A program made the position numbers and the translations under genes. A DNA stretch of 64,000 nucleotides from a virus (Duplodnaviria; Heunggongvirae; Uroviricota; Caudoviricetes): positions 1 through 64,000 of IMG/VR virus record IMGVR_UViG_3300028591_000006, one strand, 5' to 3'. Positions 1,648-50,158 of the stretch are shown here, in pieces; positions within the stretch are counted from its first letter, which is position 1, and each line of letters begins with the position of its first letter. The notes beneath the pieces are model-generated. The model saw only the letters and a list, made by a program, of their open reading frames with translations, had not been told where the DNA came from and did no database searches.

Positions 1648-1862
1648 TCCTTACTCTTACAAATCTTTTTGAATGGAATACAATCCTTTGGTAAACATTC
1701 ATAACCACAATAAATACATCTTATATTTTTACTCTTGGGAATTTTAGCCATTGGCCAATGATAATAACATTTAGGGCATCGAAGATTTGAATCAATTGTA
1801 CTAGTCTTTCTCATATACTTCTTTCTCCATGAGTATGGCAAGTTTATGTAATCGTTTCTCAA
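1638..1862 (-). CDS. Cys-rich zinc-ribbon protein (74 aa)
   Basis: CPKC...CIYCGYEC...C motifs. Confidence 0.4.
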   Translation of the reverse strand: MRNDYINLPYSWRKKYMRKTSTIDSNLRCPKCYYHWPMAKIPKSKNIRCIYCGYECLPKDCIPFKKICKSKECV

Positions 1863-2307
1863 TCTGTTTATACAGTCTGTGTATTTTAGGATTTTTGAAA
1901 CAATTCATATAATCACTTTCAGCTCCAAGTGTCATAAAATTAACTTTATCAAACAGTGCTTTCTTGCGTTTGTGCTCTTTATCCTTACCGTCTTCAATAA
2001 CTTTATCAAGATTATCTACAAAGCCATAATTCTTAGTCACACCTTCTCTATAGGTTCTGTCTTTCTGTTGCTCAAAAAACCATTCAGTACCACTCTTACC
2101 ATACTGACTGTAAACGATGTTTCTTTCCGTATTAGCGAGATAATTTTCAATATCAAAATCACTACACGTAAAACGGTCTGTGGAATGTCTGAAGATAATC
2201 TCAATACGGTCATCTTCATACCGATGGTAAAGAATATCAGTACCTGGAAGAATAATCATTTCATGATTATCAAGGTCTGTAATGTCAATTGTACTAATTA
2301 CTATCAT
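1801..2307 (-). CDS. hypothetical protein (168 aa)
   Basis: Minus-strand ORF. Confidence 0.4.
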   Translation of the reverse strand: MIVISTIDITDLDNHEMIILPGTDILYHRYEDDRIEIIFRHSTDRFTCSDFDIENYLANTERNIVYSQYGKSGTEWFFEQQKDRTYREGVTKNYGFVDNLDKVIEDGKDKEHKRKKALFDKVNFMTLGAESDYMNCFKNPKIHRLYKQIEKRLHKLAILMEKEVYEKD

Positions 2308-2974: not shown

Positions 2975-4306
2975 TTATATCCAAAGTGCTCCACGAAGAT
3001 TCTCTCTGCTGCGGAACTCAAGTTTAGCACCGTCCTGTTTGAATCCGTCCTGTTCAAATACAATGAAGTATTTCGTATTATAGATTGCTACCAGGATTGC
3101 AACATGACCATATTTATTTGTCTTGGAAGAATCCCAAATAAGGATATCTCCCTTGTCGTAATCTGCGGTAGGACTATCAACAGTCTTTTTGAGATTGGTA
3201 CACTTATCAAAAATATCCTTAGCTCCACCTTCTGCTCCTAATGCAGGGAATTGGTCTACACCAAGTACATCATGCACATACTGTCTCGCCAGGTCTACAC
3301 AATTATGAACCTTATAGTTATTACAAATATAAGTATGTGTATTGTCAGTTTCGAAATTATAAACCTCAGCTTTGAAAGTCTCGCTTATTTTCACCCTTTT
3401 GTTCATACGTTTTGTAGATTTACAAAGAGACAATCTATAAATTGGTTTTACAGATTTCACTTGTTTACCTCGAATAAAAATAGGTTCCGAACTTCTTTTC
3501 GAGATACGAATAGATTTATTTACATAACCCAACTTGATAGCAATTGCCTGTAAGCTATAAATTAAAGAAGGACTCGTGTTCATTAGTACAATCGTATTTC
3601 CTTTTTTATATCCATCAGCCTCAATAAACCCGTTAAGAATCAACTCAGATTCTCGATTACTAAAAATTAGAGGTAATTTTTTATATTCTCCTCGACATTG
3701 TTCGAGAATGATTTTAGTAAGCAAGGGATGCTCACGTTTAGAAATTGCTCCAACAAAAGCATGTTCAGATTCATGATGTGGTCTTTCAGAAGAGAGCATG
3801 TTGAGAGAATGTACAAAATCAACTTTCTTTTCTCCAAAAGTTAATCTTATTTCATCTGTTTTATTATCTTTATGTCTACCAATATTTCCATCTCCTAACC
3901 AGAATCCTAAAAATAAAAGTTCATTATCAGTAAGACCTGTCTCATCAAAACACTCCTTATCATAAAGAGATGCTAGTTTTGTTTTCAATTCTACTGCCGG
4001 AGAAAATGTTCCATCTTTGAAATAGAATGGGTGGTCAGGAGTTACGCAAAAATCACAAAGAGGTGTTCTAATGTTTACAACCTCTTTAATACTCTTGAAT
4101 GTTTTAGTAACTGTATTAACTTCATTATCATATCCGATTACTTTATCTCCAACAACAATATCCTGAATTGGTTTATAAGTCCAGTCAGCCATAAGAATCA
4201 TATGGTTTTTAGTGAAACACTGAAAACTCTTGTCACCTTTGAATACATCATCTTTATAATCAACCTTTTTACCTTTGTAAGTTTTAATAAACTCAGTTAG
4301 ATTCAT
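2975..4306 (-). CDS. CHAP-domain peptidoglycan hydrolase (endolysin-like) interrupted by a HINT+LAGLIDADG intein
   Basis: The extein is about 137 aa: MNLTEF...GDKSFQ | CVDLARQYVHDV...GHVAILVAIYN, which matches CHAP motifs Q-C-V-D and a downstream His. The intein spans residues 30-335: CFTKNHMILMAD...VGDKV (block A), CVTPDHPF (block B), LLFLGFWLGDGN and ELILNGFIEADGY (two LAGLIDADG motifs), and it ends ...YKVHN|C. Confidence 0.8.
   Translation of the reverse strand: MNLTEFIKTYKGKKVDYKDDVFKGDKSFQCFTKNHMILMADWTYKPIQDIVVGDKVIGYDNEVNTVTKTFKSIKEVVNIRTPLCDFCVTPDHPFYFKDGTFSPAVELKTKLASLYDKECFDETGLTDNELLFLGFWLGDGNIGRHKDNKTDEIRLTFGEKKVDFVHSLNMLSSERPHHESEHAFVGAISKREHPLLTKIILEQCRGEYKKLPLIFSNRESELILNGFIEADGYKKGNTIVLMNTSPSLIYSLQAIAIKLGYVNKSIRISKRSSEPIFIRGKQVKSVKPIYRLSLCKSTKRMNKRVKISETFKAEVYNFETDNTHTYICNNYKVHNCVDLARQYVHDVLGVDQFPALGAEGGAKDIFDKCTNLKKTVDSPTADYDKGDILIWDSSKTNKYGHVAILVAIYNTKYFIVFEQDGFKQDGAKLEFRSRENLRGALWI
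3302..4219 (-). mobile_element. intein (HINT splicing domain plus LAGLIDADG homing endonuclease) at the catalytic Cys of the CHAP domain
   Basis: Begins with Cys (TGT at 4219-4217) and ends HN (3307-3302), followed by the +1 Cys (3301-3299), which is the CHAP active-site Cys. Confidence 0.75.
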
Positions 4307-4710
4307 TCTTGTACCTCATTTACAACCTTATTTAGGAACTCATTGTATTCTGATTCATTTATCTCAGATACAATAACCTGTCCATTAATAACATTCTCAG
4401 CTACAATAAGAAAACCACTTTTAAGAATAATGTACTGATTCCACTTATCACCATCATAATGTATAATCAACTTTGGTATTTCCAAACGATTATCCACATA
4501 CTTACAGTTCTCATACTTGAAATAACCGGTACATTTCACACCATCGCCATTATCTTCATCAAACCTGTAATACTTACCTTTCTTAAGGTTGATGATTTCC
4601 TTGGCGTGTTTGAATGCAAGTTCAGCCTGTTTCTTATTCAGCTTCTCGTCCTGTTCCTTTAATGATTTTCTTTTAAGATTAATCTTTTCAATTTCGTCCT
4701 TATACTCCAT
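4303..4710 (-). CDS. hypothetical protein (135 aa)
   Basis: Minus-strand ORF. Confidence 0.4.
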   Translation of the reverse strand: MEYKDEIEKINLKRKSLKEQDEKLNKKQAELAFKHAKEIINLKKGKYYRFDEDNGDGVKCTGYFKYENCKYVDNRLEIPKLIIHYDGDKWNQYIILKSGFLIVAENVINGQVIVSEINESEYNEFLNKVVNEVQE

Positions 4711-5011
4711 ATATTCTCCCTTTAATTACAATTTCTATATCTCTCTTGGCACAACAACCAAGTATTTTATATTCCCCATAAGAATAAACGTTATACAGTC
4801 CATGAAGGAACCAATTAGAATAGATTGGAAAAAGCGAATAACGCTTTGTTCGATTATCATACAGTACAACGCAGGTCATGTCTTTGTATTTAACAATGTC
4901 ACCTACCTGTATCTGCTGCCCATGCTTATCGAAATACATTGTCCATGTACTAATAGGATAATATATGTTTGTATAAATTGTGTTGTACAATCGTTTTAAT
5001 TTTTTAATCAT
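4700..5011 (-). CDS. hypothetical protein (103 aa)
   Basis: Minus-strand ORF. Confidence 0.4.
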   Translation of the reverse strand: MIKKLKRLYNTIYTNIYYPISTWTMYFDKHGQQIQVGDIVKYKDMTCVVLYDNRTKRYSLFPIYSNWFLHGLYNVYSYGEYKILGCCAKRDIEIVIKGRIYGV

Positions 5012-5130
5012 TCAAATAGTCTCCTAAGCAAATCTTTTATTACATTTATTAATATTAGAACGGAGAAGGTTAGTGCTGGTGCACAGAATACAACATAGAT
5101 GATTATGTAGATTATGTCCTTGACTGTCAT

Positions 5131-5538
5131 TTATTCAGTCTCCTTTGGAAGTACAATTTCTTTCCAAGCATAAACAGAATCTATATTCTGCATTACACAA
5201 GATTTTTCATTAAAGATTTCAAACTGATTACTTCTGTAATAACCTATCAATGCTTGAACTCCATTTATAGTTTTTCTTGCGAGTAAAAGCATTGCACTTT
5301 CAGACGGAAGTTCATCTTTCACATAATGCCATTCATTATCCACAATCTGATTTACCTTTTCATTTGATTTCACACCAAACTCAAAGCCCTTGTTATAGCC
5401 GAACTCAGCACCTTTCTGCCATTTTTCTTTAGAACATTCCTTACAGGTACAATGTTCCCTACTTTTACATTTTTCATATCTTGAGCAATCTTTACAAACA
5501 CTGTCTATCACCCATTCTTCTGCTTCTTTCTCAAACAT
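5131..5538 (-). CDS. MFEKE-family protein, paralog 1 (135 aa)
   Basis: Shares MFEKEAEEW, KGAEFGYN, EWHYVKDELP and VYAWKEIVLP blocks with 37414..37821 and 38173..38508. Start uses the GGAGTAACTATG junction module. Confidence 0.6.
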   Translation of the reverse strand: MFEKEAEEWVIDSVCKDCSRYEKCKSREHCTCKECSKEKWQKGAEFGYNKGFEFGVKSNEKVNQIVDNEWHYVKDELPSESAMLLLARKTINGVQALIGYYRSNQFEIFNEKSCVMQNIDSVYAWKEIVLPKETE

Positions 5539-5540
5539 AG

Positions 5541-5708
5541 TTACTCCTTTTTAATACACCAATGCCTTCTTTCTAACTTTTTAAGTTCACCGTCATCACA
5601 CTCAATATAAACTGCATAATGCCTTTCGATTTTTATTACTTTTCCAACAAGTTCACTTTTGTCCCAATGATTTATGCATCGAACTCTATCACCAACTTCA
5701 TAATCCAT
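5541..5708 (-). CDS. small protein (55 aa, MDYEVGDRVRCINHWDK...HWCIKKE), not in the ORF track
   Basis: Hand-translated from ATG 5708-5706. Preceded by GGAGTAACT, and its TAA stop lies inside the GGAGTAACTATG module of the downstream gene. Confidence 0.4.
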   Translation of the reverse strand: MDYEVGDRVRCINHWDKSELVGKVIKIERHYAVYIECDDGELKKLERRHWCIKKE

Positions 5709-5710
5709 AG

Positions 5711-5992
5711 TTACTCCCATTTGATTGTTAATTTGTCATAATAAAAAATACCAGAGAATGTAAATTCTCCCCTTTCCAATTCACACTTAAAACCTTTTGC
5801 TTCTAATTTCTTTGAAACTAACCACAAGGCAAAGTAATCGTATAATTTACAACTTCTTTCTATCACACAATAATTGCTTGTTGCATTTTTAATTTTATGT
5901 TTTGCAACATCCATTAAAAACCAAAACTTTTCTCTAGTTTCTCGTTTCCAATTTTTTCTTGTACGTTTTCGCAGTTTTTCAATTTCTGTCAT
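5711..5992 (-). CDS. hypothetical protein (93 aa)
   Basis: Start uses the GGAGTAACTATG module, coupled to the upstream stop at 5995. Confidence 0.45.
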   Translation of the reverse strand: MTEIEKLRKRTRKNWKRETREKFWFLMDVAKHKIKNATSNYCVIERSCKLYDYFALWLVSKKLEAKGFKCELERGEFTFSGIFYYDKLTIKWE

Positions 5993-5994
5993 AG

Positions 5995-6186
5995 TTACTC
6001 CTTCTTTACAAAATCGACTAAATACCTACAGCCAAATTGTGAACACCCTTTACTTCGATTACACTCTGCACACTTGTGAGTATGTTCATAACAACAATCT
6101 TCACAATTCTGCCAAATATCAACATTACAGTTAACGCAGTCTCTTTTTAGTTTTCTTCCGTCTTTTGTATTATTGCAATAAACCAT
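5995..6186 (-). CDS. Cys-rich small protein (63 aa)
   Basis: Ten Cys residues (CVNCNV...CEDCCYEHTHKCAECN...CSQFGC). Confidence 0.4.
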   Translation of the reverse strand: MVYCNNTKDGRKLKRDCVNCNVDIWQNCEDCCYEHTHKCAECNRSKGCSQFGCRYLVDFVKKE

Positions 6187-6274
6187 AGTTATTCTAATTA
6201 CTCCTTTATTTTAGTTTCCGCCTTAAAAGTAAAATAACAGGTTTTCTAATTTCATTTTTCCACCTTTTCGGTTT

Positions 6275-6535
6275 TTATTCATTCTCCAACTCACTTAACG
6301 TTTCTACCATTGTTCTCAATGCTTTAACTAGATTATTAGGATATTTTTTCTTATAAGTGCAATAACTTATAAATGAAACACCTTTAAGATGCAGTCTCCA
6401 CTCAACAAAATCCTTAGCGTCTTTTCTTGAAATATGATTCACACTTGAAGTCATATCAATTAAACGCTCTTTCAGTTTCATTTTCTTTTCAAATCGTGTT
6501 TGTATTTTGTGATGCTTTCTCCTGTTCATTTGCAC
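6275..6535 (-). CDS. hypothetical protein (86 aa)
   Basis: Minus-strand ORF. Confidence 0.35.
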   Translation of the reverse strand: MQMNRRKHHKIQTRFEKKMKLKERLIDMTSSVNHISRKDAKDFVEWRLHLKGVSFISYCTYKKKYPNNLVKALRTMVETLSELENE

Positions 6536-7194
6536 TCCTGTAAGAATTGCTCTGCTTGTTGTTTAATTTCTTCGTAAGCAAGATTAAAAAACGAAGAAGG
6601 TTCTCCGTCTTCATCTTTCCCATAAATTGTTCTTGGAGTTGTTAACAATCTTTCAATAAGTTTCTTTGCTTTGGTGAGTTGTTCGTCTTTATCAAACACC
6701 ATATTTCTGTATTTATCCCTTTCTTCTTCAAGTGCCTTATTCAGTGAATTAAGACCCTTGTTCAAAATTGAACCTACCGCAAGACCTTCTTTGAGTTTCT
6801 TGTTTTCAAAGTGTCTGTTCATATTGCTAGACTGTTGGAACTCTGTAATCTTTCTAAGTTCTGCGTTTTCCTTTTCAAGTTCCTTGTTAATCATAATGTT
6901 ATGGTCTTTAAGGTTGGCAGTCTTGCACCATAAATCCGCCTTGTCTTTCCATTCTTTTACTTCTGCTTCAAGTTCTGCAATCCGCTTTTCTCTTGGCTCT
7001 GCTCCTGCAAGATAGTATTGCTTGATGTTTGCTAAATCGTAGCAGTCTTCTTTACCTGGACAACGTTCTGGATTACCACAATGTGCACATTGCTCACGTT
7101 CAGCATATTCAAAGGCTTCTTTTTCAAGTTCTTCTTTATTCATTCTTCTTCTACCTCCCTTGAAGTTATAAAAACCTGTTCTCCTCTTAGCCAA
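6526..7194 (-). CDS. hypothetical coiled-coil protein with an N-terminal Cys cluster (222 aa)
   Basis: CAHCGNPERCPGKEDC followed by a long charged helical region. Confidence 0.45.
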   Translation of the reverse strand: MAKRRTGFYNFKGGRRRMNKEELEKEAFEYAEREQCAHCGNPERCPGKEDCYDLANIKQYYLAGAEPREKRIAELEAEVKEWKDKADLWCKTANLKDHNIMINKELEKENAELRKITEFQQSSNMNRHFENKKLKEGLAVGSILNKGLNSLNKALEEERDKYRNMVFDKDEQLTKAKKLIERLLTTPRTIYGKDEDGEPSSFFNLAYEEIKQQAEQFLQECK

Positions 7195-7508
7195 TTTTTA
7201 TATCGGTCTTTCTTCTTCTGTTCGACATTTACCTTACAGTAACAATCTGCACATATATCGAAATAAGTCATTGTATTATATGAAACAAACCTTCTAATGG
7301 TTGTATTCGTACAGTTTTCACCACACCATTTACATTTTGGAATAAAGAATATTTTCCCTTTCTTTTTCTTATATCCATTAAGATAATAACCGATAAGATT
7401 ATCAAACATTCTATTTCTCCTTAATATAATCATTGAAGTGTTTCTGTATCTCTGATTCTTCGTAACTGAAAGCAAACAAGTCATAACCCATAAATTCACG
7501 CTTATCAA
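7140..7508 (-). CDS. zinc-ribbon protein (122 aa)
   Basis: CKWCGENC...CADCYC motifs. Confidence 0.4.
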   Translation of the reverse strand: MISVNLWVMTCLLSVTKNQRYRNTSMIILRRNRMFDNLIGYYLNGYKKKKGKIFFIPKCKWCGENCTNTTIRRFVSYNTMTYFDICADCYCKVNVEQKKKDRYKNWLRGEQVFITSREVEEE

Positions 7509-8405
7509 TCATCTCAATATTTCCTCTTTCTTACCAATAATAGAACCATCCAAGAAAGTGAAATTATCGAAAAGCTCTTTTAATTTAAGATTCTCGTAAC
7601 CGGTACCTACATCACAATCATAATAATCACGCTCAAAGAAAAAGTCGATAATGAGATGTACACTATTACATTCCTTATTCTTTATCCAGATAAGCGGCAT
7701 GAGTAATTCATGATTAAACTCAAGACCACTCTTCTTTTTCCAAGCATCAATTAATTCCTGTACTGAATTGAACGGAACATATTCAACCTCATCTTTAATT
7801 CGCCATTCCTTCCATTTGTCAAAAGCACTTGCACGAGGAATTTCAATGAGATGCCAATCTATCCATTCATCACCTTCTTTATACTGAATTGTCTTACCCT
7901 GTTTCCAGGCAAGCATTATCTTTTCAAATGATTTGTAGTTGTCATACCACTTAATACATTCATCTTCGGTACCTTTGAATACAACATACCTATCATTCTT
8001 TGAGTTAGTGCGGGAAAGTCCATAGTCATCAAGAACAATATACCAGGTTGTTTCAGGTTTGATACGATATTCGTCTGTAGTGAATAATGGTGCAAACCCT
8101 TCTAATACATCTTCCCAATCACCATTATGATTTTTGAACTGTAGCTGCTTACCTTCAAGATATGCTTTACGGAACTCATAGTATGGGTCGTAATATGCAA
8201 ACTGATAATCACAAGTTATTTCTCCATCGTCATAATAAGTGAATGGACAAACATCATCACCACTGCTAGATAACGTTACCATAGCTTCAGGATTATCTTT
8301 TACCTGACGTCTTAATGATGCAATATCCTGTGCAACAAATCCTTTCTTATCTTCAAGTATTTTATCCCATTCAAAATAAACGAATTTCTTATTATACAAT
8401 TCCAT
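7509..8405 (-). CDS. hypothetical protein (298 aa)
   Basis: Minus-strand ORF. Confidence 0.5.
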   Translation of the reverse strand: MELYNKKFVYFEWDKILEDKKGFVAQDIASLRRQVKDNPEAMVTLSSSGDDVCPFTYYDDGEITCDYQFAYYDPYYEFRKAYLEGKQLQFKNHNGDWEDVLEGFAPLFTTDEYRIKPETTWYIVLDDYGLSRTNSKNDRYVVFKGTEDECIKWYDNYKSFEKIMLAWKQGKTIQYKEGDEWIDWHLIEIPRASAFDKWKEWRIKDEVEYVPFNSVQELIDAWKKKSGLEFNHELLMPLIWIKNKECNSVHLIIDFFFERDYYDCDVGTGYENLKLKELFDNFTFLDGSIIGKKEEILR

Positions 8406-8586
8406 AACTATTCCTCCACAATCATCTTCTTTAATTCTTCATAGCATTTATCACATAATCCAAAGTTCTTATTCATTTTTGTGTTTTCATAGTCATAACG
8501 GTGAATTGTGATAAATCTTCCTTTACCTGTTTTCCCACATACATAACATGGCTGTATTGTTATATTTTTAATTATTTTCATAATTT

Positions 8587-8799
8587 TTACTCATTCGCAT
8601 AAAGTGTCTTGTTGATGAACTCAATAAGCTGCTCTTTAGACATAATCTGTAAAGCAACATCCAATTTTGATTTTACGTCATCTGCTTTTACACTTTCAGA
8701 ATGAAGTTTTTCTTCAAGCTCCCAAATCTCAGGTTTCATAGCAAGAGCTTCTTCCTGTGTATAAACATGTGGTTTTTTCTTAATTACATCTGGATTCAT
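8587..8799 (-). CDS. hypothetical protein (70 aa)
   Basis: Minus-strand ORF. Confidence 0.35.
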   Translation of the reverse strand: MNPDVIKKKPHVYTQEEALAMKPEIWELEEKLHSESVKADDVKSKLDVALQIMSKEQLIEFINKTLYANE

Positions 8800-8846
8800 A
8801 ATTTTACTCCTTTCCTTAATACTAGAAAGTTGCGTCTCCCCAGATT

Positions 8847-9044
8847 TTATTCTTTCGTTTCTGCACCAATCTCTATTTTATCACCAATCTTCACATGAAA
8901 ATTCTTGAAGGTCTTACGGATAATTCTCATTACAAGTGCAAGAACAATACATAGCAGTATGGCAGCTCCAACAATAAATGCAACATCACTTCCCGTAATC
9001 TCATCATCATATTCAGATGGTACTTCTTCATAATATTCTTCCAT
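8847..9044 (-). CDS. small membrane protein (65 aa, one TM helix)
   Basis: Acidic N-terminus followed by the hydrophobic stretch VAFIVGAAILLCIVLALVM. Confidence 0.4.
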   Translation of the reverse strand: MEEYYEEVPSEYDDEITGSDVAFIVGAAILLCIVLALVMRIIRKTFKNFHVKIGDKIEIGAETKE

Positions 9045-9754: not shown

Positions 9755-9940
9755 TTAAATTCCTTTACGTGCATAGCTGTAGTCCTCATTGATATAATAT
9801 TTACCAAGGGCAAGTTTTTCATTTTCCTTACTGGCTCTTACCCTTTTCAGCACATTAATATCCGGTTTATCAAGATGTACCAGATACCGTCTTCCTTCGT
9901 CAGGAATCTCAATAATTTCCATTGTTCCTATAGTTTTCAT
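9755..9940 (-). CDS. small protein (62 aa); probable true start MKTIGTMEII
   Basis: ATG at 9940. The TATAAT box at 9956-9945 lies 7 nt upstream, suggesting a leaderless start. The longer track ORF reads through the promoter. Confidence 0.35.
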   Translation of the reverse strand: MKTIGTMEIIEIPDEGRRYLVHLDKPDINVLKRVRASKENEKLALGKYYINEDYSYARKGI

Positions 9941-9944
9941 ACTT

Positions 9945-9956
9945 TTAATTATAGAA
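9945..9956 (-). promoter_or_regulatory. phage promoter motif (-10 TATAAT), 7 nt before ATG 9940
   Basis: TTCTATAATTAAAAGT-ATG. Confidence 0.45.
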
Positions 9957-9968
9957 AACTGACAGGAC

Positions 9969-10045
9969 AAAAAAAACCCTACAGTATAGTTTAGGAGTAA
10001 TACTGTAGGGTTGCAAATTATGAATCATGAAATTATTCATTTGTT
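9969..10045 (-). ncRNA. candidate small RNA 1 (about 77 nt): promoter c, then hairpin, then U-tract
   Basis: A -10 box (TATAAT, 10058-10063 on the minus strand) lies upstream. The 13-bp perfect hairpin aaccctacagtat/atactgtagggtt (9975-10012) has minus-strand loop UACUCCUAAACU and is followed by U8 (plus-strand A-run 9969-9976). Confidence 0.45.
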
Positions 10046-10051
10046 TCTAAC

Positions 10052-10079
10052 TTAATTATAGAAACTCTGATTTTCTCAG
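10052..10079 (-). promoter_or_regulatory. phage promoter c (CTGAGAAA-N-TTCTATAATTAA)
   Basis: Full bipartite motif; 13 nt between CTGAGA and TATAAT. Confidence 0.55.
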
Positions 10080-10164
10080 AAAAAAAGAAGGGTTATCTGA
10101 CCGGGTGGGAGGGAAAAGGTCAGATAACCCAAAACCTTCAGGAGGTGCCAAAATGTCAAGGCAT
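10080..10164 (-). ncRNA. candidate small RNA 2 (about 85 nt): promoter d, then single-stranded CACCUCCU, then 13-bp hairpin, then U-tract
   Basis: Promoter motif at 10171-10198. The minus-strand transcript contains GGCACCUCCUGAAGG (10149-10135). The hairpin gggttatctgacc/ggtcagataaccc (10090-10130) is followed by U7 (plus-strand A-run 10080-10086). Confidence 0.45.
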
Positions 10165-10170
10165 CATAAT

Positions 10171-10198
10171 TTAATTATAGAAAGGAATGTATTCTCAG
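10171..10198 (-). promoter_or_regulatory. phage promoter d (CTGAGAAT-N-TTCTATAATTAA)
   Basis: Full bipartite motif. Confidence 0.55.
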
Positions 10199-10203
10199 TC
10201 AAT

Positions 10204-10260
10204 AAAAAAGACCCTACAGTATGTAGGAGTATACCATAGGGTCAAAGAGTTTATAATGAC
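10204..10260 (-). ncRNA. candidate small RNA 3 (about 57 nt): promoter e, then hairpin, then U-tract; paralog of sRNA 1
   Basis: Promoter motif at 10267-10301. The hairpin gaccctacagtat/ataccatagggtc (10210-10243, two internal mismatches) has minus-strand loop ACUCCUAC and is followed by U6. Confidence 0.4.
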
Positions 10261-20313: not shown

Positions 20314-20335
20314 AAGAACTCCTAATTATAAATTA

Positions 20336-20424
20336 CTCGGTGGGCAGGATTCGAACCTACACAATTCATGTATGAATCACCAGAATCAAAATCTGGGGAG
20401 ATACCAATTACTCTTTACCACCGA
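20336..20424 (-). tRNA. tRNA, anticodon UUG (Gln-type), with an unusually long (about 19 nt) variable arm; 89 nt
   Basis: Acceptor stem TCGGTGG/CCACCGA. Anticodon arm CCAGA-UUUUGAU-UCUGG, with the anticodon at plus positions 20387-20389. T-arm GTAGG-TTCGAAT-CCTGC. CCA is not encoded. Confidence 0.6.
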
Positions 20425-20498
20425 AAGATATATAATATATAAATATTAGAACCTTATTAAAAGCCGTTGGCTTACCGCTTGCCGACGACCCACTATAC

Positions 20499-25798: not shown

Positions 25799-26702
25799 GC
25801 AATGCTACCCAGATTGCAGAAACACCATTACGGTATGTATCAGCATTACTGAAAGCCTGTATCATTGCAATAGCAGTCTTATTCATAGATTTCTTCAGAA
25901 CACTTGTAGCATAACTCATTACAAGTCTGCGTACACCTTCCGGATTGGTAGAAACATCATCTTTGATTTTCTCCATACACTCAACATATTTCTCCCAACC
26001 TTCAGTTCTGATAAGAGCACGGCACAGTTCTATAGCATCTTCATTCTCATCAATGTTAGGATTAAGTTTTATAAAATTTCTTCGTTCATCATCATTTTCA
26101 AGATAAAGAATCTGTCCTAAACGTTTAAGAGCATTTCTTGAAGAACCATTACTTTCAGCAGCGACTGTTTTCAATATTTCCTGGTCTATTGCAACACCTT
26201 CTTTATGAGCAACTGTTCTAAGCAAACGATAAGTTGTATCTAAATCTAAAGGTTTGAAACGTACCAATGATAATCTTGAACGTAATGCCTCTTTCAACTT
26301 TTCAGGATTTGTCGTAGCAAAAATAAATACAACCCATTCAGGTGATTTTTCAATAATTTGCAGCAAACAGTCTTGAGAATCATTTGTAAGCCCATGACAT
26401 TCATCAAATATATACACCAACTTGCTATTCTCTAAAGGTGTAAATTTAAGTTCTTCACCAATAGCACGAATATCCTCAATTTTTCTCTCATTAGATGCAT
26501 TAATCATACGAATATTCAATTCATTAGCACCCAAATACCTTGCTACACATTCAGCAGTGGTCGTTTTTCCACAACCTTTTTCAGCAACAAACAGAAATGA
26601 ATTATGCCCAGCTTGAAGTTCAGCTTTTATAGATTTTATGGCATCATCATTTCCAAGAATTTCATCGAAAGTTTTCGGTCTATACTTATTGTATAATTCC
26701 AT
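25764..26702 (-). CDS. clamp-loader AAA+ ATPase subunit (T4 gp44 / RFC small subunit-like)
   Basis: Walker A (VAEKGCGKTTTA), Walker B/DExx (VYIFDECH), and a sensor region. Confidence 0.75.
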   Translation of the reverse strand: MELYNKYRPKTFDEILGNDDAIKSIKAELQAGHNSFLFVAEKGCGKTTTAECVARYLGANELNIRMINASNERKIEDIRAIGEELKFTPLENSKLVYIFDECHGLTNDSQDCLLQIIEKSPEWVVFIFATTNPEKLKEALRSRLSLVRFKPLDLDTTYRLLRTVAHKEGVAIDQEILKTVAAESNGSSRNALKRLGQILYLENDDERRNFIKLNPNIDENEDAIELCRALIRTEGWEKYVECMEKIKDDVSTNPEGVRRLVMSYATSVLKKSMNKTAIAMIQAFSNADTYRNGVSAIWVALLDFQDYLAQLG

Positions 26703-27675
26703 TGTTTTTCTCCTTCATACTTTGTCTATGGCGTTTCATAGACTCACTTATTTTCTTTCTGGTTTCAGGGCTAACAGTTCTTAATTTTCCAATTTCTCGT
26801 AATTTTTGTTTAGTTTCTTCAGAATGATGCTTTCCATAAAAATGATTCTTTTCACCCAAAAGACTTTCACTTATTTTACGTTTACTTTCATCAGAATGAT
26901 GTTTACCCTTTATCCAAGGTATTTTCCCTTTATTTTTCTCACTTAATATCTTTTTTCGTTCTTCCGGAAATTCCCTATTTTCCCAATATTTCAACCTAGA
27001 TATTCTCATTCTTTCTTTTTGTTCTTCAGTACGTTTCTTACCTTTATTTTTTTCAGCAATCTTATTAACGATTTCTTCGGAACGTTTCTTTCCAAGATTT
27101 GAATTTATCAAGGCTTGTTTATGTTCTTCAGATAAGGTATAACCATTCTTTTTTCTAGTTATCCAACCTCTTTTCGATTTTTCTGAACAGTCTTGCTTTA
27201 ATAGACTATTTGAAAGTTTTTCTTTACTTTCATTCTTCATAGGAATACTTTTATTCCAGGTTGGTTTACCTATATGTGAATTAGACATCTTTTTCTTAAC
27301 ATCTGAAGAATTTAATTTTTCAATTATCTTCTTGCGAATTTCTAATTTTTCTTCAGGTGTCAAAAATTCTAGGGAATATCCATGACCTCCTTCAGCAATA
27401 TTATATTCTGCTTTACCAATACTTTTGTATAAAGAAATATATGAAGTTTCAAGAATATCAATTTCTTTTGAAGAATGACATATTGCTAATATTTCCTTAT
27501 CAAAGTTATTAATACCATATTTATTTTCAGCCCGAATTATGTATTTTCCAGACCCCATATATCCATCGGTTAATGGCGTAACAACTCTACGTTTATATTT
27601 TCGCAAACGTCTTTGACCAACATAATTCTTACCATTAATTTTGTTTGTTATAAGATAAATATAATAAGTTTCCAT
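26686..27675 (-). CDS. GIY-YIG homing endonuclease with NUMOD3-type repeats (start trimmed to METYYIYLITN)
   Basis: YYIYLITNKINGKNYVGQ...R...GYMGSGKYI is a GIY-YIG core. The C-terminal half carries repeated basic modules of the form HSDESKRKISESLLGEKNHFYGKHHSEETKQKL. Inserted between the clamp-loader and clamp genes. Confidence 0.8.
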   Translation of the reverse strand: METYYIYLITNKINGKNYVGQRRLRKYKRRVVTPLTDGYMGSGKYIIRAENKYGINNFDKEILAICHSSKEIDILETSYISLYKSIGKAEYNIAEGGHGYSLEFLTPEEKLEIRKKIIEKLNSSDVKKKMSNSHIGKPTWNKSIPMKNESKEKLSNSLLKQDCSEKSKRGWITRKKNGYTLSEEHKQALINSNLGKKRSEEIVNKIAEKNKGKKRTEEQKERMRISRLKYWENREFPEERKKILSEKNKGKIPWIKGKHHSDESKRKISESLLGEKNHFYGKHHSEETKQKLREIGKLRTVSPETRKKISESMKRHRQSMKEKNNGIIQ

Positions 27676-33605: not shown

Positions 33606-34097
33606 TTAAATAATTTTCTTAAAAATATACTGACAATGTGGACCAGAGTTTATATAATCAATTACATAAGGTTTACCTTTTGTAATATCACCATAAGTAA
33701 CTTCAGAATCATAAGGAATATAAAATTCAATCTCATGAGTTTTCAGACCACTCCATATATACAATAATAGCTTACATTGTGCTGAATTTTCATATGAAAC
33801 AATCTTATAATCTTTTAATTTACCTTTCCATTTATAATAACAATCCGCACCCATTGAATTAGCATAATGTTCTTCAATTTTCACAAGTGCATATCTTTTA
33901 AGAGTGCGAATAGCATTTCGTAAATGGTGTTTATCAAAATACATACAATTATTCCTTATCACATGCCTTTTCGTCAGGGTCATAGATTGCCATCTTACAA
34001 CCTTTCTTTCCAATATCAACAGTAAATTTATCAATAAGTTTTTCTCTAGGAAATTCTTCGTAAATCGTGTTAATTGCAACAGAATAACCTTCAACAA
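33606..34097 (-). CDS. hypothetical protein (likely shorter; start near MTLTKRHV)
   Basis: Minus-strand ORF. Confidence 0.35.
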   Translation of the reverse strand: MLKVILLQLTRFTKNFLEKNLLINLLLILERKVVRWQSMTLTKRHVIRNNCMYFDKHHLRNAIRTLKRYALVKIEEHYANSMGADCYYKWKGKLKDYKIVSYENSAQCKLLLYIWSGLKTHEIEFYIPYDSEVTYGDITKGKPYVIDYINSGPHCQYIFKKII

Positions 34098-37413: not shown

Positions 37414-37821
37414 TTAATTCTCCTTTGGTGGTAATACAGGACACTCTTTCCAAGCGTAAACCTGTTCATCGAAACATTCATAATCATCATCATCTTCCCA
37501 ATGGAAATCTTCTTCACAATCTGTTTCTTCTACCCAATTCAGAATTGCTCCACTCTTATATCCACGACCATTATCCATAGCAACATAATAAGAACCTTCG
37601 CTTTTTGGGAAATCTCCTTTTGACGGATAGTGCCATTCATCAGCCTTTCTTTCTTCTTTACTTTCCCAATGCTTATTCAGATAGTCTATTTCTTCTTTGG
37701 CAAAATTATAGCCAAACTCTGCACCGTCTTTCCAATCTGTAATATGATTTTTATATCCTTGAACACTTGAAGGATATTTTTTCATAATTGCTTTTTCTGC
37801 TTCTTTCTCAAACATTCTCAA
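37414..37821 (-). CDS. MFEKE-family protein, paralog 2
   Basis: MFEKEAEKA, DGAEFGYN, EWHYPSKGDFP and VYAWKECPVLP blocks. Confidence 0.55.
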   Translation of the reverse strand: MRMFEKEAEKAIMKKYPSSVQGYKNHITDWKDGAEFGYNFAKEEIDYLNKHWESKEERKADEWHYPSKGDFPKSEGSYYVAMDNGRGYKSGAILNWVEETDCEEDFHWEDDDDYECFDEQVYAWKECPVLPPKEN

Positions 37822-38172: not shown

Positions 38173-38508
38173 TCATTCACTCTCCTTTAGTTCTGGAAGT
38201 ACAATTTCTTTCCAAGCGATAACTGTACTCATAGGAATAAAACCCCAACCTTTTGACATAAAATGATTTTCAACTTTTTCCGCAACATAGCAATTATTCA
38301 AGTCTGTATAAATTAACATATACTCTTTATCTTTCGGGAAATCCCCATCTTTCACATAATGCCATTCGTTCGCCTTGTTAAATCCGAACTCTGCACCTTT
38401 TTGAAAGGTTTTTGAATGATTATCTATATCATCAACATAGCCATTACCAAGTTCTTTTGTTGCCCATAACTTTGATTCTTTCTCAAACATAGTTACTCCT
38501 CCAAGCAC
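38173..38508 (-). CDS. MFEKE-family protein, paralog 3
   Basis: MFEKESK, KGAEFGFN, EWHYVKDGDFP and IAWKEIVLP blocks. Start uses the GGAGTAACTATG module. Confidence 0.55.
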   Translation of the reverse strand: MLGGVTMFEKESKLWATKELGNGYVDDIDNHSKTFQKGAEFGFNKANEWHYVKDGDFPKDKEYMLIYTDLNNCYVAEKVENHFMSKGWGFIPMSTVIAWKEIVLPELKESE

Positions 38509-38799
38509 TGTTTTACCCTTACATACCCAACATAGATAAAATCACGAGCAGCTATTGCATCTGTTCTCTGCTGTTCTGTAATGGTTTTATCTTTAGCAAT
38601 TGCATCTATTCTGTCCATTATGTCTATCAGTTCAAGTCTGATATTATACATTCCTTCTTGAAACATTCTTTCTGCTCCTTATTATCCTTAAAAGTATCTT
38701 TCATAGCCTGTTTATACATTTCTAACATTTCGGATTTATGCTCATTTGGAACACGATTGTATAAATCTTTTAGAAAATCTAATGTACTATAAAGTTCCA

Positions 38800-49120: not shown

Positions 49121-50158
49121 TTACTCTTTAGTTTTTCTTTTCTTACCCAAATTGAACTGTCTTAATTTTTCTTTAGTTTCTTCTTTCATTGGTAATTTCC
49201 CTCTAACAAATCCTTCTGGACATTTGAATGATTGGACTTGTTTGATTCCATTGTTCCACCATTTCATACCGGTATTACCAACATTATTAAAATTAATTCT
49301 TCCAGGAACAAACCCTGGCGGACACTCTTTACCACGATAATTTTCTTTCCCATTATTGTACCAGTGGGTGTTAACCAAGTTATCTTTAGGTTTACCTGTA
49401 AGAGATTTTGATAAACGTTTTCTGTGCTCTTCTGAAAATTTTCTACCAGTCAATGCAAGAATCATTCTTTCTCTCATTTCAGGTGTCCATTTCCTACCCT
49501 TAGCTTTCTCAGACATTTTCCTACGAGATTCTTCGCTAAGATGTCGACCTTTATTAATGTCAGACATTCTTTTTCTAAACTCTGGATTCTTTCGAGAAAT
49601 TTTATATTTTTCTGAGTTCTTAACTTTTTCACCTGTCTTTTTTCGTTCTTCAGGATTTTGATATCTCTTTTTAACTATTTCTGACATCTTTCTTTTAGTT
49701 TCTAAATTGGCTTTGTGTCCTTTGTTCGGAGAAGGTCTACCCTTTAATTTCTCAGAAATATTTTTACGTTGTTCTTCGGTAATTATTTTTCCTTTGTTTG
49801 CAAGACTTATTTTACGTTTAATTTCAATTTGTCTAATTTCGGAAAGATATAACCAATTACCTTTTCCACCAAGACCACCCGGTGCAATATTAAATTCCGC
49901 TTTTCCAATTTGTTTATACAAACGAATATACTCGATTTCGAGAATATCTAATATTTCTTGTGTATAACAAATTGCTAAAATTCTCTTAGAGAAATTCTCA
50001 ATACCATATTTCTTTTCAGCAGCAAGAATGTGTTTTCCTTTACCCATATAAGAAGTGTCAGTTTCCGGAGTTTTATTCAAAGGACAATGACGCTGACCAA
50101 TATAATTTCTTCCATCACCATTATAGGTAATTTCATAAATGTAATATGTCTGTAACAT
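49121..50158 (-). CDS. GIY-YIG homing endonuclease with NUMOD3-type repeats (paralog 2; start trimmed to MLQTYYIYEITYN)
   Basis: YYIYEITYNGDGRNYIGQ...SYMGKGKHI is a GIY-YIG core. C-terminal half carries repeated basic modules of the form SEEHRKRLSKSLTGK. SD aaggaga before the ATG at 50158. The track ORF's N-terminal extension translates the structured leader. Confidence 0.75.
   Translation of the reverse strand: MLQTYYIYEITYNGDGRNYIGQRHCPLNKTPETDTSYMGKGKHILAAEKKYGIENFSKRILAICYTQEILDILEIEYIRLYKQIGKAEFNIAPGGLGGKGNWLYLSEIRQIEIKRKISLANKGKIITEEQRKNISEKLKGRPSPNKGHKANLETKRKMSEIVKKRYQNPEERKKTGEKVKNSEKYKISRKNPEFRKRMSDINKGRHLSEESRRKMSEKAKGRKWTPEMRERMILALTGRKFSEEHRKRLSKSLTGKPKDNLVNTHWYNNGKENYRGKECPPGFVPGRINFNNVGNTGMKWWNNGIKQVQSFKCPEGFVRGKLPMKEETKEKLRQFNLGKKRKTKE

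Follow-up and report, generated by a model that had tools for sequence, protein, structure and literature searches.

The first 64,000 nucleotides of IMG/VR record IMGVR_UViG_3300028591_000006 (the window, meaning the whole stretch analyzed) belong to an uncultivated T4-like rumen phage. Between small open reading frames (ORFs) of this phage we find a recurrent 12-14 nt junction module, which carries the Shine-Dalgarno sequence (SD) of one gene, the stop codon of the gene before it, and then the start codon. We think it probable that this module is portable SD-stop-start gene punctuation that marks mosaic breakpoints, with recombination or template switching building or collapsing the gene arrays around it.

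A repeated junction between small genes

The window is AT-rich (ca. 35% G+C), and its minus strand holds almost all genes. The 12-mer GGAGTAACTATG occurs in four exact copies, all on the minus (coding) strand, and was not found in 100 dinucleotide-preserving shuffles. The last three bases of every copy are the ATG of a gene (positions 5538, 5708, 5992, and 38490), and the TAA within the copy terminates the upstream ORF (5541-5708, 5711-5992, 5995-6186, and 38493-38666, respectively). Three of the copies lie inside 470 nt and the fourth at 38.5 kb. The module occupies real junctions of a tightly packed, one-strand gene run. An earlier, sequence-only reading had placed the same junction at the starts of ORFs 5131..5538, 5541..5708, 5711..5992, and 38173..38508. 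The exact 12-mer is indeed present at all four, but the full 14-mer AAGGAGTAACTATG stands at just two of them (5536-5549 and 5990-6003), with TGGGAG... and GAGGAG... at the other two, and the fourth gene starts at 38490, because ORF 38173..38508 is the longest, GTG-started version and the ATG at 38490 is the start supported by an SD. That reading also listed a variant at 6186, which has TAACTATG in common with the module; its GGAGTAA, however, lies 9 nt farther upstream (GGAGTAATTAGAATAACTATG), and the upstream gene stops elsewhere, not inside it. The counts are far from what base composition and placement without regard to junctions would give, the outcome that the sequence-only reading had named as fatal to its proposal. 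The copies, the variant, and the genes that they serve, including members of a family whose proteins begin MFEKE, are as follows (aa, amino acids).

5536..5549, minus strand: module copy 1, AAGGAGTAACTATG; SD within the closing codons (K-E) of the 55-aa gene, then TAA, CT, and the ATG of MFEKE paralog 1
5706..5717, minus strand: module copy 2, (TG)GGAGTAACTATG; joins the 93-aa gene (end W-E-stop) to the 55-aa gene
5990..6003 (12-mer 5990-6001), minus strand: module copy 3, AAGGAGTAACTATG; joins the 63-aa Cys-rich gene (end K-K-E-stop) to the 93-aa gene
38488..38499, minus strand: module copy 4, (GA)GGAGTAACTATG; joins the 57-aa gene (38493-38666) to MFEKE paralog 2
6184..6206, minus strand: degenerate variant AAGGAGTAATTAGAATAACTATG; precedes the 63-aa gene, the orthologous junction in related locus L052 being GAAGGAGTAAATTATG
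5131..5538, minus strand: MFEKE paralog 1 (MFEKEAEEW..., 135 aa)
5541..5708, minus strand: 55-aa gene (MDYEVGD...), a single-gene mosaic unit
5711..5992, minus strand: 93-aa gene (MTEIEKL...), a single-gene mosaic unit
5995..6186, minus strand: 63-aa Cys-rich gene, a single-gene mosaic unit
38173..38490, minus strand: MFEKE paralog 2 (MFEKESKLW..., 105 aa)

Most genes of the window have AAGGAG-type SDs, and AGGAGTAA-type junctions stand at at least 12 of its gene starts; we therefore applied a stricter null, in which genes were binned by the spacing from GGAG to the start codon and the spacer columns were shuffled within each bin (20,000 shuffles). Identical-spacer pairs numbered 13, against a mean of 1.2 in this null. 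None of the 20,000 shuffles reached 13, and a four-fold identical spacer arose in 0.075% of them. Thus, reuse of the module is real, because it exceeds a null in which SD, spacing, and spacer composition are all held.

The abundance of AGGAGTAA-type junctions speaks for a different explanation, convergent optimization alone, in which many junctions of a compact genome with strong SDs drift toward AAGGAG, UAA, a short spacer, and AUG, selection favors one good start or coupling junction, and recombinants that cut genes are lost, so that illegitimate recombination and selection would account for the pattern. A further ground for it is a background control, a collection-wide IMG/VR scan with the 14-mer that returned at least 119 mostly unrelated stretches (1.0 Mb). 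Among the background matches listed (119 stretches), 92% of the 14-mer copies stand at gene starts, and in 35% the internal TAA serves as the upstream stop; as a start region, the 14-mer has therefore originated independently in many unrelated phages. Yet each of these listed stretches has a single copy, never two or more, and none of the copies leads an MFEK gene, whereas contigs of the clade to which the present phage belongs often hold two or more within 1 kb, and their module is tied to one gene family. The 14-mer by itself is not diagnostic; its clustering and its tie to a single family are specific to this clade. Nor does convergence readily explain the CU of the module, which has no known benefit and is nevertheless fixed in all four GGAGTAA-NN-ATG sites on the coding strand (NN = CT in 4/4) and in the 6186 variant, or reuse beyond the stricter null, or a predicted start-region accessibility no better than that of other genes. 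We regard convergence alone as possible but unlikely.

The same comparison qualifies the earlier statement that the preceding gene always stops at the UAA within the module. This holds for the four window copies but for only 26 of the 39 copies in the window and its relatives, a proportion that still differs from the 42 of 119 among the background matches listed (Fisher P = 0.0008). In the remaining clade copies the upstream stop is mostly a TAA just before GGAG or a TGA inside ATGTTTGAG, and in 37 of the 39 a gene ends no more than 15 nt from the module.

Single-gene exchange at the module

Each gene of the array (63, 93, and 55 aa) occurs singly, at 77-99% DNA identity, in otherwise unrelated contigs, and in every case the homology breaks inside or at the edge of the module. 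For the 63-aa gene, positions 9997-10197 of L052 match window 6190-5990 at 93% DNA identity, the match ending at the G of the module ATG and resuming at window 5552-5514 (module plus MFEKEAEE). The order in L052 is 63aa-module-MFEKE; between its module copies, the window therefore carries two additional genes. For the 93-aa gene, the match of L053 to window 6012-5706 (77% DNA identity) ends at 5706. The L053 homolog ends W-E-TAG-CT-ATG, and after GGGAGTAGCTATG comes a different gene, one for a membrane protein. The 55-aa gene was found twice, in L054 (window 5717-5531, 94%), where the junctions read GGAGTAAAACTATG and GGAGTAGCCATG and both neighbors are different, and in L057 (window 5717-5460, 98.8%), where the upstream sequence is unrelated, the module is present in both, and the switch point is the first G of GGAG (5717). 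At the second locus of the window, the 5' edge of the module (38500-38503) is where high-scoring segment pairs of seven related loci, from at least five distinct contigs, break off.

In each aligned comparison, the module is the only sequence common to both sides of the switch. Tandem arrays of module-led small genes are also present in L027, L033, L047, and L059, and the module variants among relatives (GGAGTAGCTATG, GGAGTAGCCATG, GGAGTAAAACTATG, GGTGTAACTATG, and GGAGTAACTTATG) resemble point mutations or indels of one sequence. Sequence comparison shows the copies to be one sequence spread by descent and recombination, not independent inventions, and the alignments show the module to be the only sequence common to these points of exchange, insertion, or deletion of single small genes between phages. 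The cassette-like shuffling proposed by the sequence-only reading is borne out for the array at 6186-5131: exact-match searches of the window and its relatives find copies with different flanking genes, and L052, L053, L054, and L057 switch at the module. Tandem duplication and divergence of the three small genes was considered as an origin of the array and rejected, the three having no mutual similarity and each having its own homologs elsewhere. One further feature borders the array.

6187..6274, minus strand: apparent gene remnant, a 10-codon ORF (MKLENLLFYF) with its own SD; its counterpart in L052 (9887-9997) is a gene for a 36-aa membrane protein

This segment looks like what is left of a small gene after an internal deletion, with the junction sequences kept at both ends.

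At the module, the SD of gene N+1 (GGAG, usually AAGGAG) lies in the final sense codons of gene N (...K/E/W-E) and is followed by the UAA of gene N, then CU, then the AUG of gene N+1. In the mechanism that we favor, crossing-over or template switching inside these 12-14 nt (ca. 36 nt at MFEKE genes) could join any two cassettes, and because the junction holds the upstream stop together with the downstream SD and start, such joining would spare both ORFs and their expression. Arrays such as 63aa-module-93aa-module-55aa-module-MFEKE would be built or collapsed by this kind of exchange, L052 having 63aa-module-MFEKE, and the phage-encoded UvsX/RecA-like, gp46/47-like, and Seg-like enzymes may supply the recombination activity. 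Ribosomes that stop at the UAA, 5 nt past the SD and with the AUG 2 nt farther on, would probably reinitiate or keep the site open, a form of translational coupling.

A more specialized proposal, which we entertain only tentatively, is that the module (ca. 36 nt at MFEKE genes) is a dedicated translation-signal recombination joint, a counterpart of the transcription-signal PeSL cassettes described below, from which flanked genes could loop out as mini-circles and re-insert at other copies. A common extended form, TTAAGGAGTAACTATGTTTGAG, has stops in three frames (TAA, TAA, TGA) in addition to SD and AUG, so that any gene could be placed in front of it in any frame. If the joint were dedicated, small accessory-gene arrays would be built and eroded across the whole rumen-phage clade. 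If the junction guides exchange, shuffling of the variable region would run on a 12-14 nt translation signal that leaves both neighbors intact and expressed, and promoter/terminator cassettes or long homologies would be unnecessary. This would help to explain the fast turnover of tiny ORFan gene arrays and would make mobile accessory genes in uncultivated phage genomes easy to spot by their sequence. Should the junction not guide exchange, the pattern is one of ordinary tight gene packing with mosaicism at gene borders.

The MFEKE family and other reused start regions

In this phage clade, the module stands mainly in front of one multi-copy family, MFEKE, of which it is the usual leader. Two further features of the window concern this family.

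5514..5549, minus strand: extended conserved leader AAGGAGTAACTATGTTTGAGAAAGAAGCAGAAGAATGG, the module plus codons 1-9 (MFEKEAEEW); conserved at the DNA level among relatives whose proteins are ca. 30% identical
37414..37815, minus strand: MFEKE paralog 3 (133 aa); same first 7 codons, different upstream junction AAAGGAGTTTGAGAATG

The three MFEKE proteins of the window are paralogs with 27-31% identity, and two of their genes have 24 nt in common, namely the module plus ATGTTTGAGAAAGAA. Of these paralogs, which the earlier proposal included among the shuffled genes, 1 and 2 share the module and an identical 5' coding stretch, and paralog 3 has a different junction. The 25-mer AAGGAGTAACTATGTTTGAGAAAGA is exact in 23 IMG/VR contigs, and the 23-mer GGAGTAACTATGTTTGAGAAAGA is exact in five contigs of metagenome-assembled genomes (MAGs), one of them labelled yak rumen; the proteins behind these leaders are otherwise ca. 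30-45% identical. Across the window and related IMG/VR and MAG contigs, 31 of 39 unique 12-mer copies lead MFEK genes and 8 lead others, a count that rests largely on loci retrieved with the exact, module-containing 25-mer.

Conservation of the leader extends to synonymous sites. Among loci retrieved by degenerate protein patterns, and with the codon usage of the window as reference, the first eight codons (MFEKEAEE) are almost fixed: TTT is used in 26/26 (58% in the window), GAG in 24/26 (22% in the window, the genome preferring GAA), and GCT not at all (42% in the window). We infer that these near-fixed sites result either from recurrent exchange or gene conversion or from a constraint that acts at the RNA level on the beginning of the coding sequence. 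The stretch upstream of the ATG is more variable than the leader codons. Its commonest form is AAGGAGTAACT, and the rarer forms (TAAAT, TAGAT, TAGCCA, TAACTT, and GGTGTAACT) resemble point or indel derivatives of it. The near-invariant leader sites were seen at window 5514-5538, 37792-37815, and 38467-38490 and in loci L001-L063.

Pfam and PHROG searches with the small genes gave nothing above threshold; the MFEKE family profile had no match in Pfam or in the PDB, and paralog 1 (135 aa) had none in PHROG. Membership in DUF551 (PF04448), considered for the MFEKE proteins, was rejected, there being no match in 23 family members at E ≤ 0.05 and no PDB match. Many MFEKE homologs terminate in ...PELKESE or ...PKEIKE; at window 38173-38190 the final codons, CTAAAGGAGAGTGAATGA, contain both the SD for the gene that follows and a start/stop overlap, ATGA. 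The conserved C-terminal peptide may be shaped by this downstream start region.

Other start regions of the window are also reused exactly. On the minus strand, AAAGGAGAAATAATTATG occurs three times (ATGs 23804, 24450, and 12234), including at the large terminase gene, AAGGAGCAAATTATG three times (ATGs 58720, 58093, and 31539), and AAGGAGAATTAAATG twice (ATGs 38985 and 37413). The genes that share any one of these are non-paralogous, and the reuse is genome-wide, extending beyond small genes. Relatives have repeated junctions of their own, with GATAGCGAGGTGGAAAAATGA present twice in L052 (9690-9890) and AAGGAGAGTAAATAAATG twice in L053 (1857-1877 and 5977-5997), so junction reuse seems to be general in the clade. 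A 168-aa gene at window 1801-2307 (minus strand), in place of which a simple gene caller took a plus-strand ORF, has a junction, AAGGAGTAAATTATG, identical to that before the 63-aa gene in L052.

Several of these observations weigh against recombination guided by the module. Because other start regions are reused on unrelated genes, general pressure on start regions may contribute, and gene-sized mosaic patches occur at junctions without the module (genes 178-537 and 33606-33944), so the module is not required for exchange; both are what convergent optimization would lead one to see. Breakpoints could come to lie at junctions simply because intact genes are selected for, and predicted start-region accessibility at the module is ordinary, the same as at other genes. 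A stretch of 12-14 nt is, moreover, short for homologous recombination of the UvsX/RecA type. Each cassette was found in one or two independent contexts, and the relatives compared include no very close full-length one. Finally, the MFEK-led share of copies is partly set by retrieval, because the exact 25-mer query contains the module.

Known systems, translation, and genome context

The module represents no new kind of system; it is a small-scale case of known modular phage evolution. The modular theory of lambdoid phages, associated with Susskind and Botstein and with Clark et al. 2001, reportedly includes conserved boundary or linker sequences between modules. The present module resembles such linkers in being a short shared gene-boundary sequence that could guide homologous exchange of functional modules. 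Unlike the linkers, which belong to temperate phages and larger modules, it separates single small ORFs in a T4-like, lytic-type genome and is itself a start region.

Classical translationally coupled junctions have stop and start codons that overlap or lie a few nt apart, with the SD inside the upstream ORF, as in the trpB-trpA-type UGAUG, and they are normally idiosyncratic to each gene pair. The module likewise places its SD within the upstream coding sequence, between same-strand, tightly packed genes: at all four copies the UAA is 2 nt upstream of the AUG, and GGAG lies in the last sense codons, 5 nt before the AUG (60 other window genes use 5-10 nt). In contrast to classical junctions, one exact sequence serves several unrelated pairs and moves between phages with the genes. 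Given this arrangement, translational coupling at the module junctions is plausible. A specially unstructured start region was considered and rejected: the opening energies, 2.1-5.1 kcal/mol, do not differ significantly from those of other genes (median 4.0; P = 0.29). A simple consensus scan of 6190-5131 (minus strand) found no strong promoter-like site and no terminator-like site.

The closest analog in function appears to be PeSL (promoter-early stem-loop), a mobile kind of regulatory cassette known from T4-type phages (Arbiol et al. 2010, PMC2839356; Comeau et al. 2014, PMC4122927), whereas in form the module seems nearest to SAS, a start-associated repeat (Pope et al. 2011, PMC3203893). 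Like PeSL, the module is a short conserved regulatory motif repeated among small ORFs that are non-essential and lie in variable parts of a T4-like genome, and endpoints of insertions, deletions, and replacements between related phages coincide with it (in L052, L053, L054, and L057, and at the segment-pair ends at 38500-38503). For PeSL and module alike, the proposal is that single genes are shuffled by recombination between copies, and direct repeats on either side of a gene could in principle excise it. PeSL, however, are transcription signals, consisting of a sigma-70 promoter and a terminator hairpin, whose mini-circles and promoter and terminator activities were shown experimentally (PMC2839356; PMC4122927), whereas the module is a 12-14 nt translation signal (SD-stop-start) with no promoter, and with neither a hexamer pair nor a hairpin within its 12-14 nt, and is known here from sequence alone.

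SAS is an asymmetric repeat of ca. 13 bp that holds the SD core and lies 3-7 bp upstream of starts, in one orientation, on different gene families in the non-structural part of the genome; it sometimes includes the stop codon of the upstream gene and has conserved positions unable to pair with 16S rRNA (PMC3203893). The module is similar in all these respects, its genes lying in one orientation and belonging to four unrelated families in the window, with eight non-MFEK genes overall. It differs in sequence, the SAS consensus being GGGATAGGAGCCC and the module GGAGTAACTATG, with the GGAG core alone common to both, and in number, with 11-19 SAS copies per genome against four (PMC3203893). The 17-bp inverted repeats (ESAS) that often accompany SAS were not seen at the module, and SAS are not reported as mosaic breakpoints (PMC3203893), while the module is dominated by one gene family. 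Because it is without promoter and terminator and off the SAS consensus, the module works like PeSL and SAS but is a member of neither.

For the SAS of cluster K mycobacteriophages a shared operator has been proposed (PMC3203893). Applied to the present case, the module or the 36-nt leader would be bound by a trans-acting regulator that controls a set of genes together, such as a RegA-like translational repressor, a RegB-like nuclease that cuts GGAG, or an anti-SD small RNA (sRNA). SAS, a conserved SD-containing repeat of unknown function, is a published precedent (PMC3203893), and UAACU and the synonymous sites of codons 2-8 are conserved beyond the needs of 16S rRNA pairing in genes whose proteins are ca. 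30% identical. Three strong hairpins with CUCC loops just upstream of the small-gene block would also suit an RNA regulator. Against an operator, RegA and RegB are absent from 25 listed of the 37 Pfam families that matched 92 proteins of the window, which is part of the genome, and the genes led by the module are small ORFs that are unrelated and have no obvious function in common. The hairpins themselves resemble ordinary intrinsic terminators with U-tracts, and their loops pair only with AGGAGUA(A), which is common to at least 12 start regions, and not with CUAUG. A shared operator is, in our view, quite improbable.

The hairpins lie between the terminase gene and the small-gene block, at window 9940-10250 (minus strand), in three tandem units, each made up of promoter-like TTTCTATAATTAA and, after it, a strong terminator-type hairpin that has a U-tract (10243-10210, ca. 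10130-10090, and 10012-9972; z = -3.9 to -4.9). All three loops hold the anti-SD-like CUCC (ACUCCUAC, UUUUCCCUCCCACCC, and UUACUCCUAAAC), and those at 10243-10210 and 10012-9972 carry (U)UACUCCU. The complementarity of candidate sRNA loops to the module, noted in the sequence-only reading, is real but short and generic. We rejected the module as a specific sRNA target, because a 7-8 nt anti-SD match fits any AGGAGUA(A) start region, and AGGAGUAA is present at at least 12 window gene starts.

The gene content of the window suggests the toolkit of an actively recombining phage. It encodes T4-like portal, RecA/UvsX-like, SbcC/gp46-like, and Mre11/gp47-like proteins, a clamp-loader subunit, and a SNF2 helicase. 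Two paralogous genes (41% identity) for SegE-like GIY-YIG/NUMOD3 proteins, free-standing homing endonucleases, lie at 26686-27675 and 49121-50158 (minus strand), and a 443-aa protein (2975-4306, minus strand) has CHAP, Hom_end-associated Hint, and LAGLIDADG_3 matches, which suggests a CHAP-domain (cell-wall hydrolase-type) protein interrupted by a homing-endonuclease intein. These genes raise one more explanation for the recurrence of the module, as the recognition or repair-template sequence of genes inserted by way of breaks made by a Seg-like GIY-YIG or LAGLIDADG intein enzyme. The presence of both kinds of nuclease domain in the window and the direct module repeats that flank the insertions are in keeping with it. 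However, none of the inserted genes encodes a nuclease, and the endonuclease genes do not adjoin the arrays; we consider it very improbable. Portable gene punctuation, spread by recombination, remains the reading that we prefer.

No match to cultured phages was found by megablast with window 4000-9000 or by tblastn with an MFEKE protein, and a 40-nt leader query gave no significant match to them; the nearest terminase among cultured phages is ca. 25% identical, and no close cultured relative was found in these searches. Exact-protein look-ups returned the same phage contig or nothing, and a metagenome scan with the 55-aa protein returned two loci, one of them new. The module and MFEK leader were also found in MAG contigs L059-L063, binned as Treponema (two, one of them from yak rumen), Christensenellaceae, Candidatus Enterousia, and Eubacteriales. 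Host assignment from these bins was rejected because they spread over several taxa, and the contigs are probably mis-binned phage contigs. The sole Rfam/ARAGORN match in the window is a tRNA-Gln (anticodon UUG) at 20335-20425 on the minus strand.

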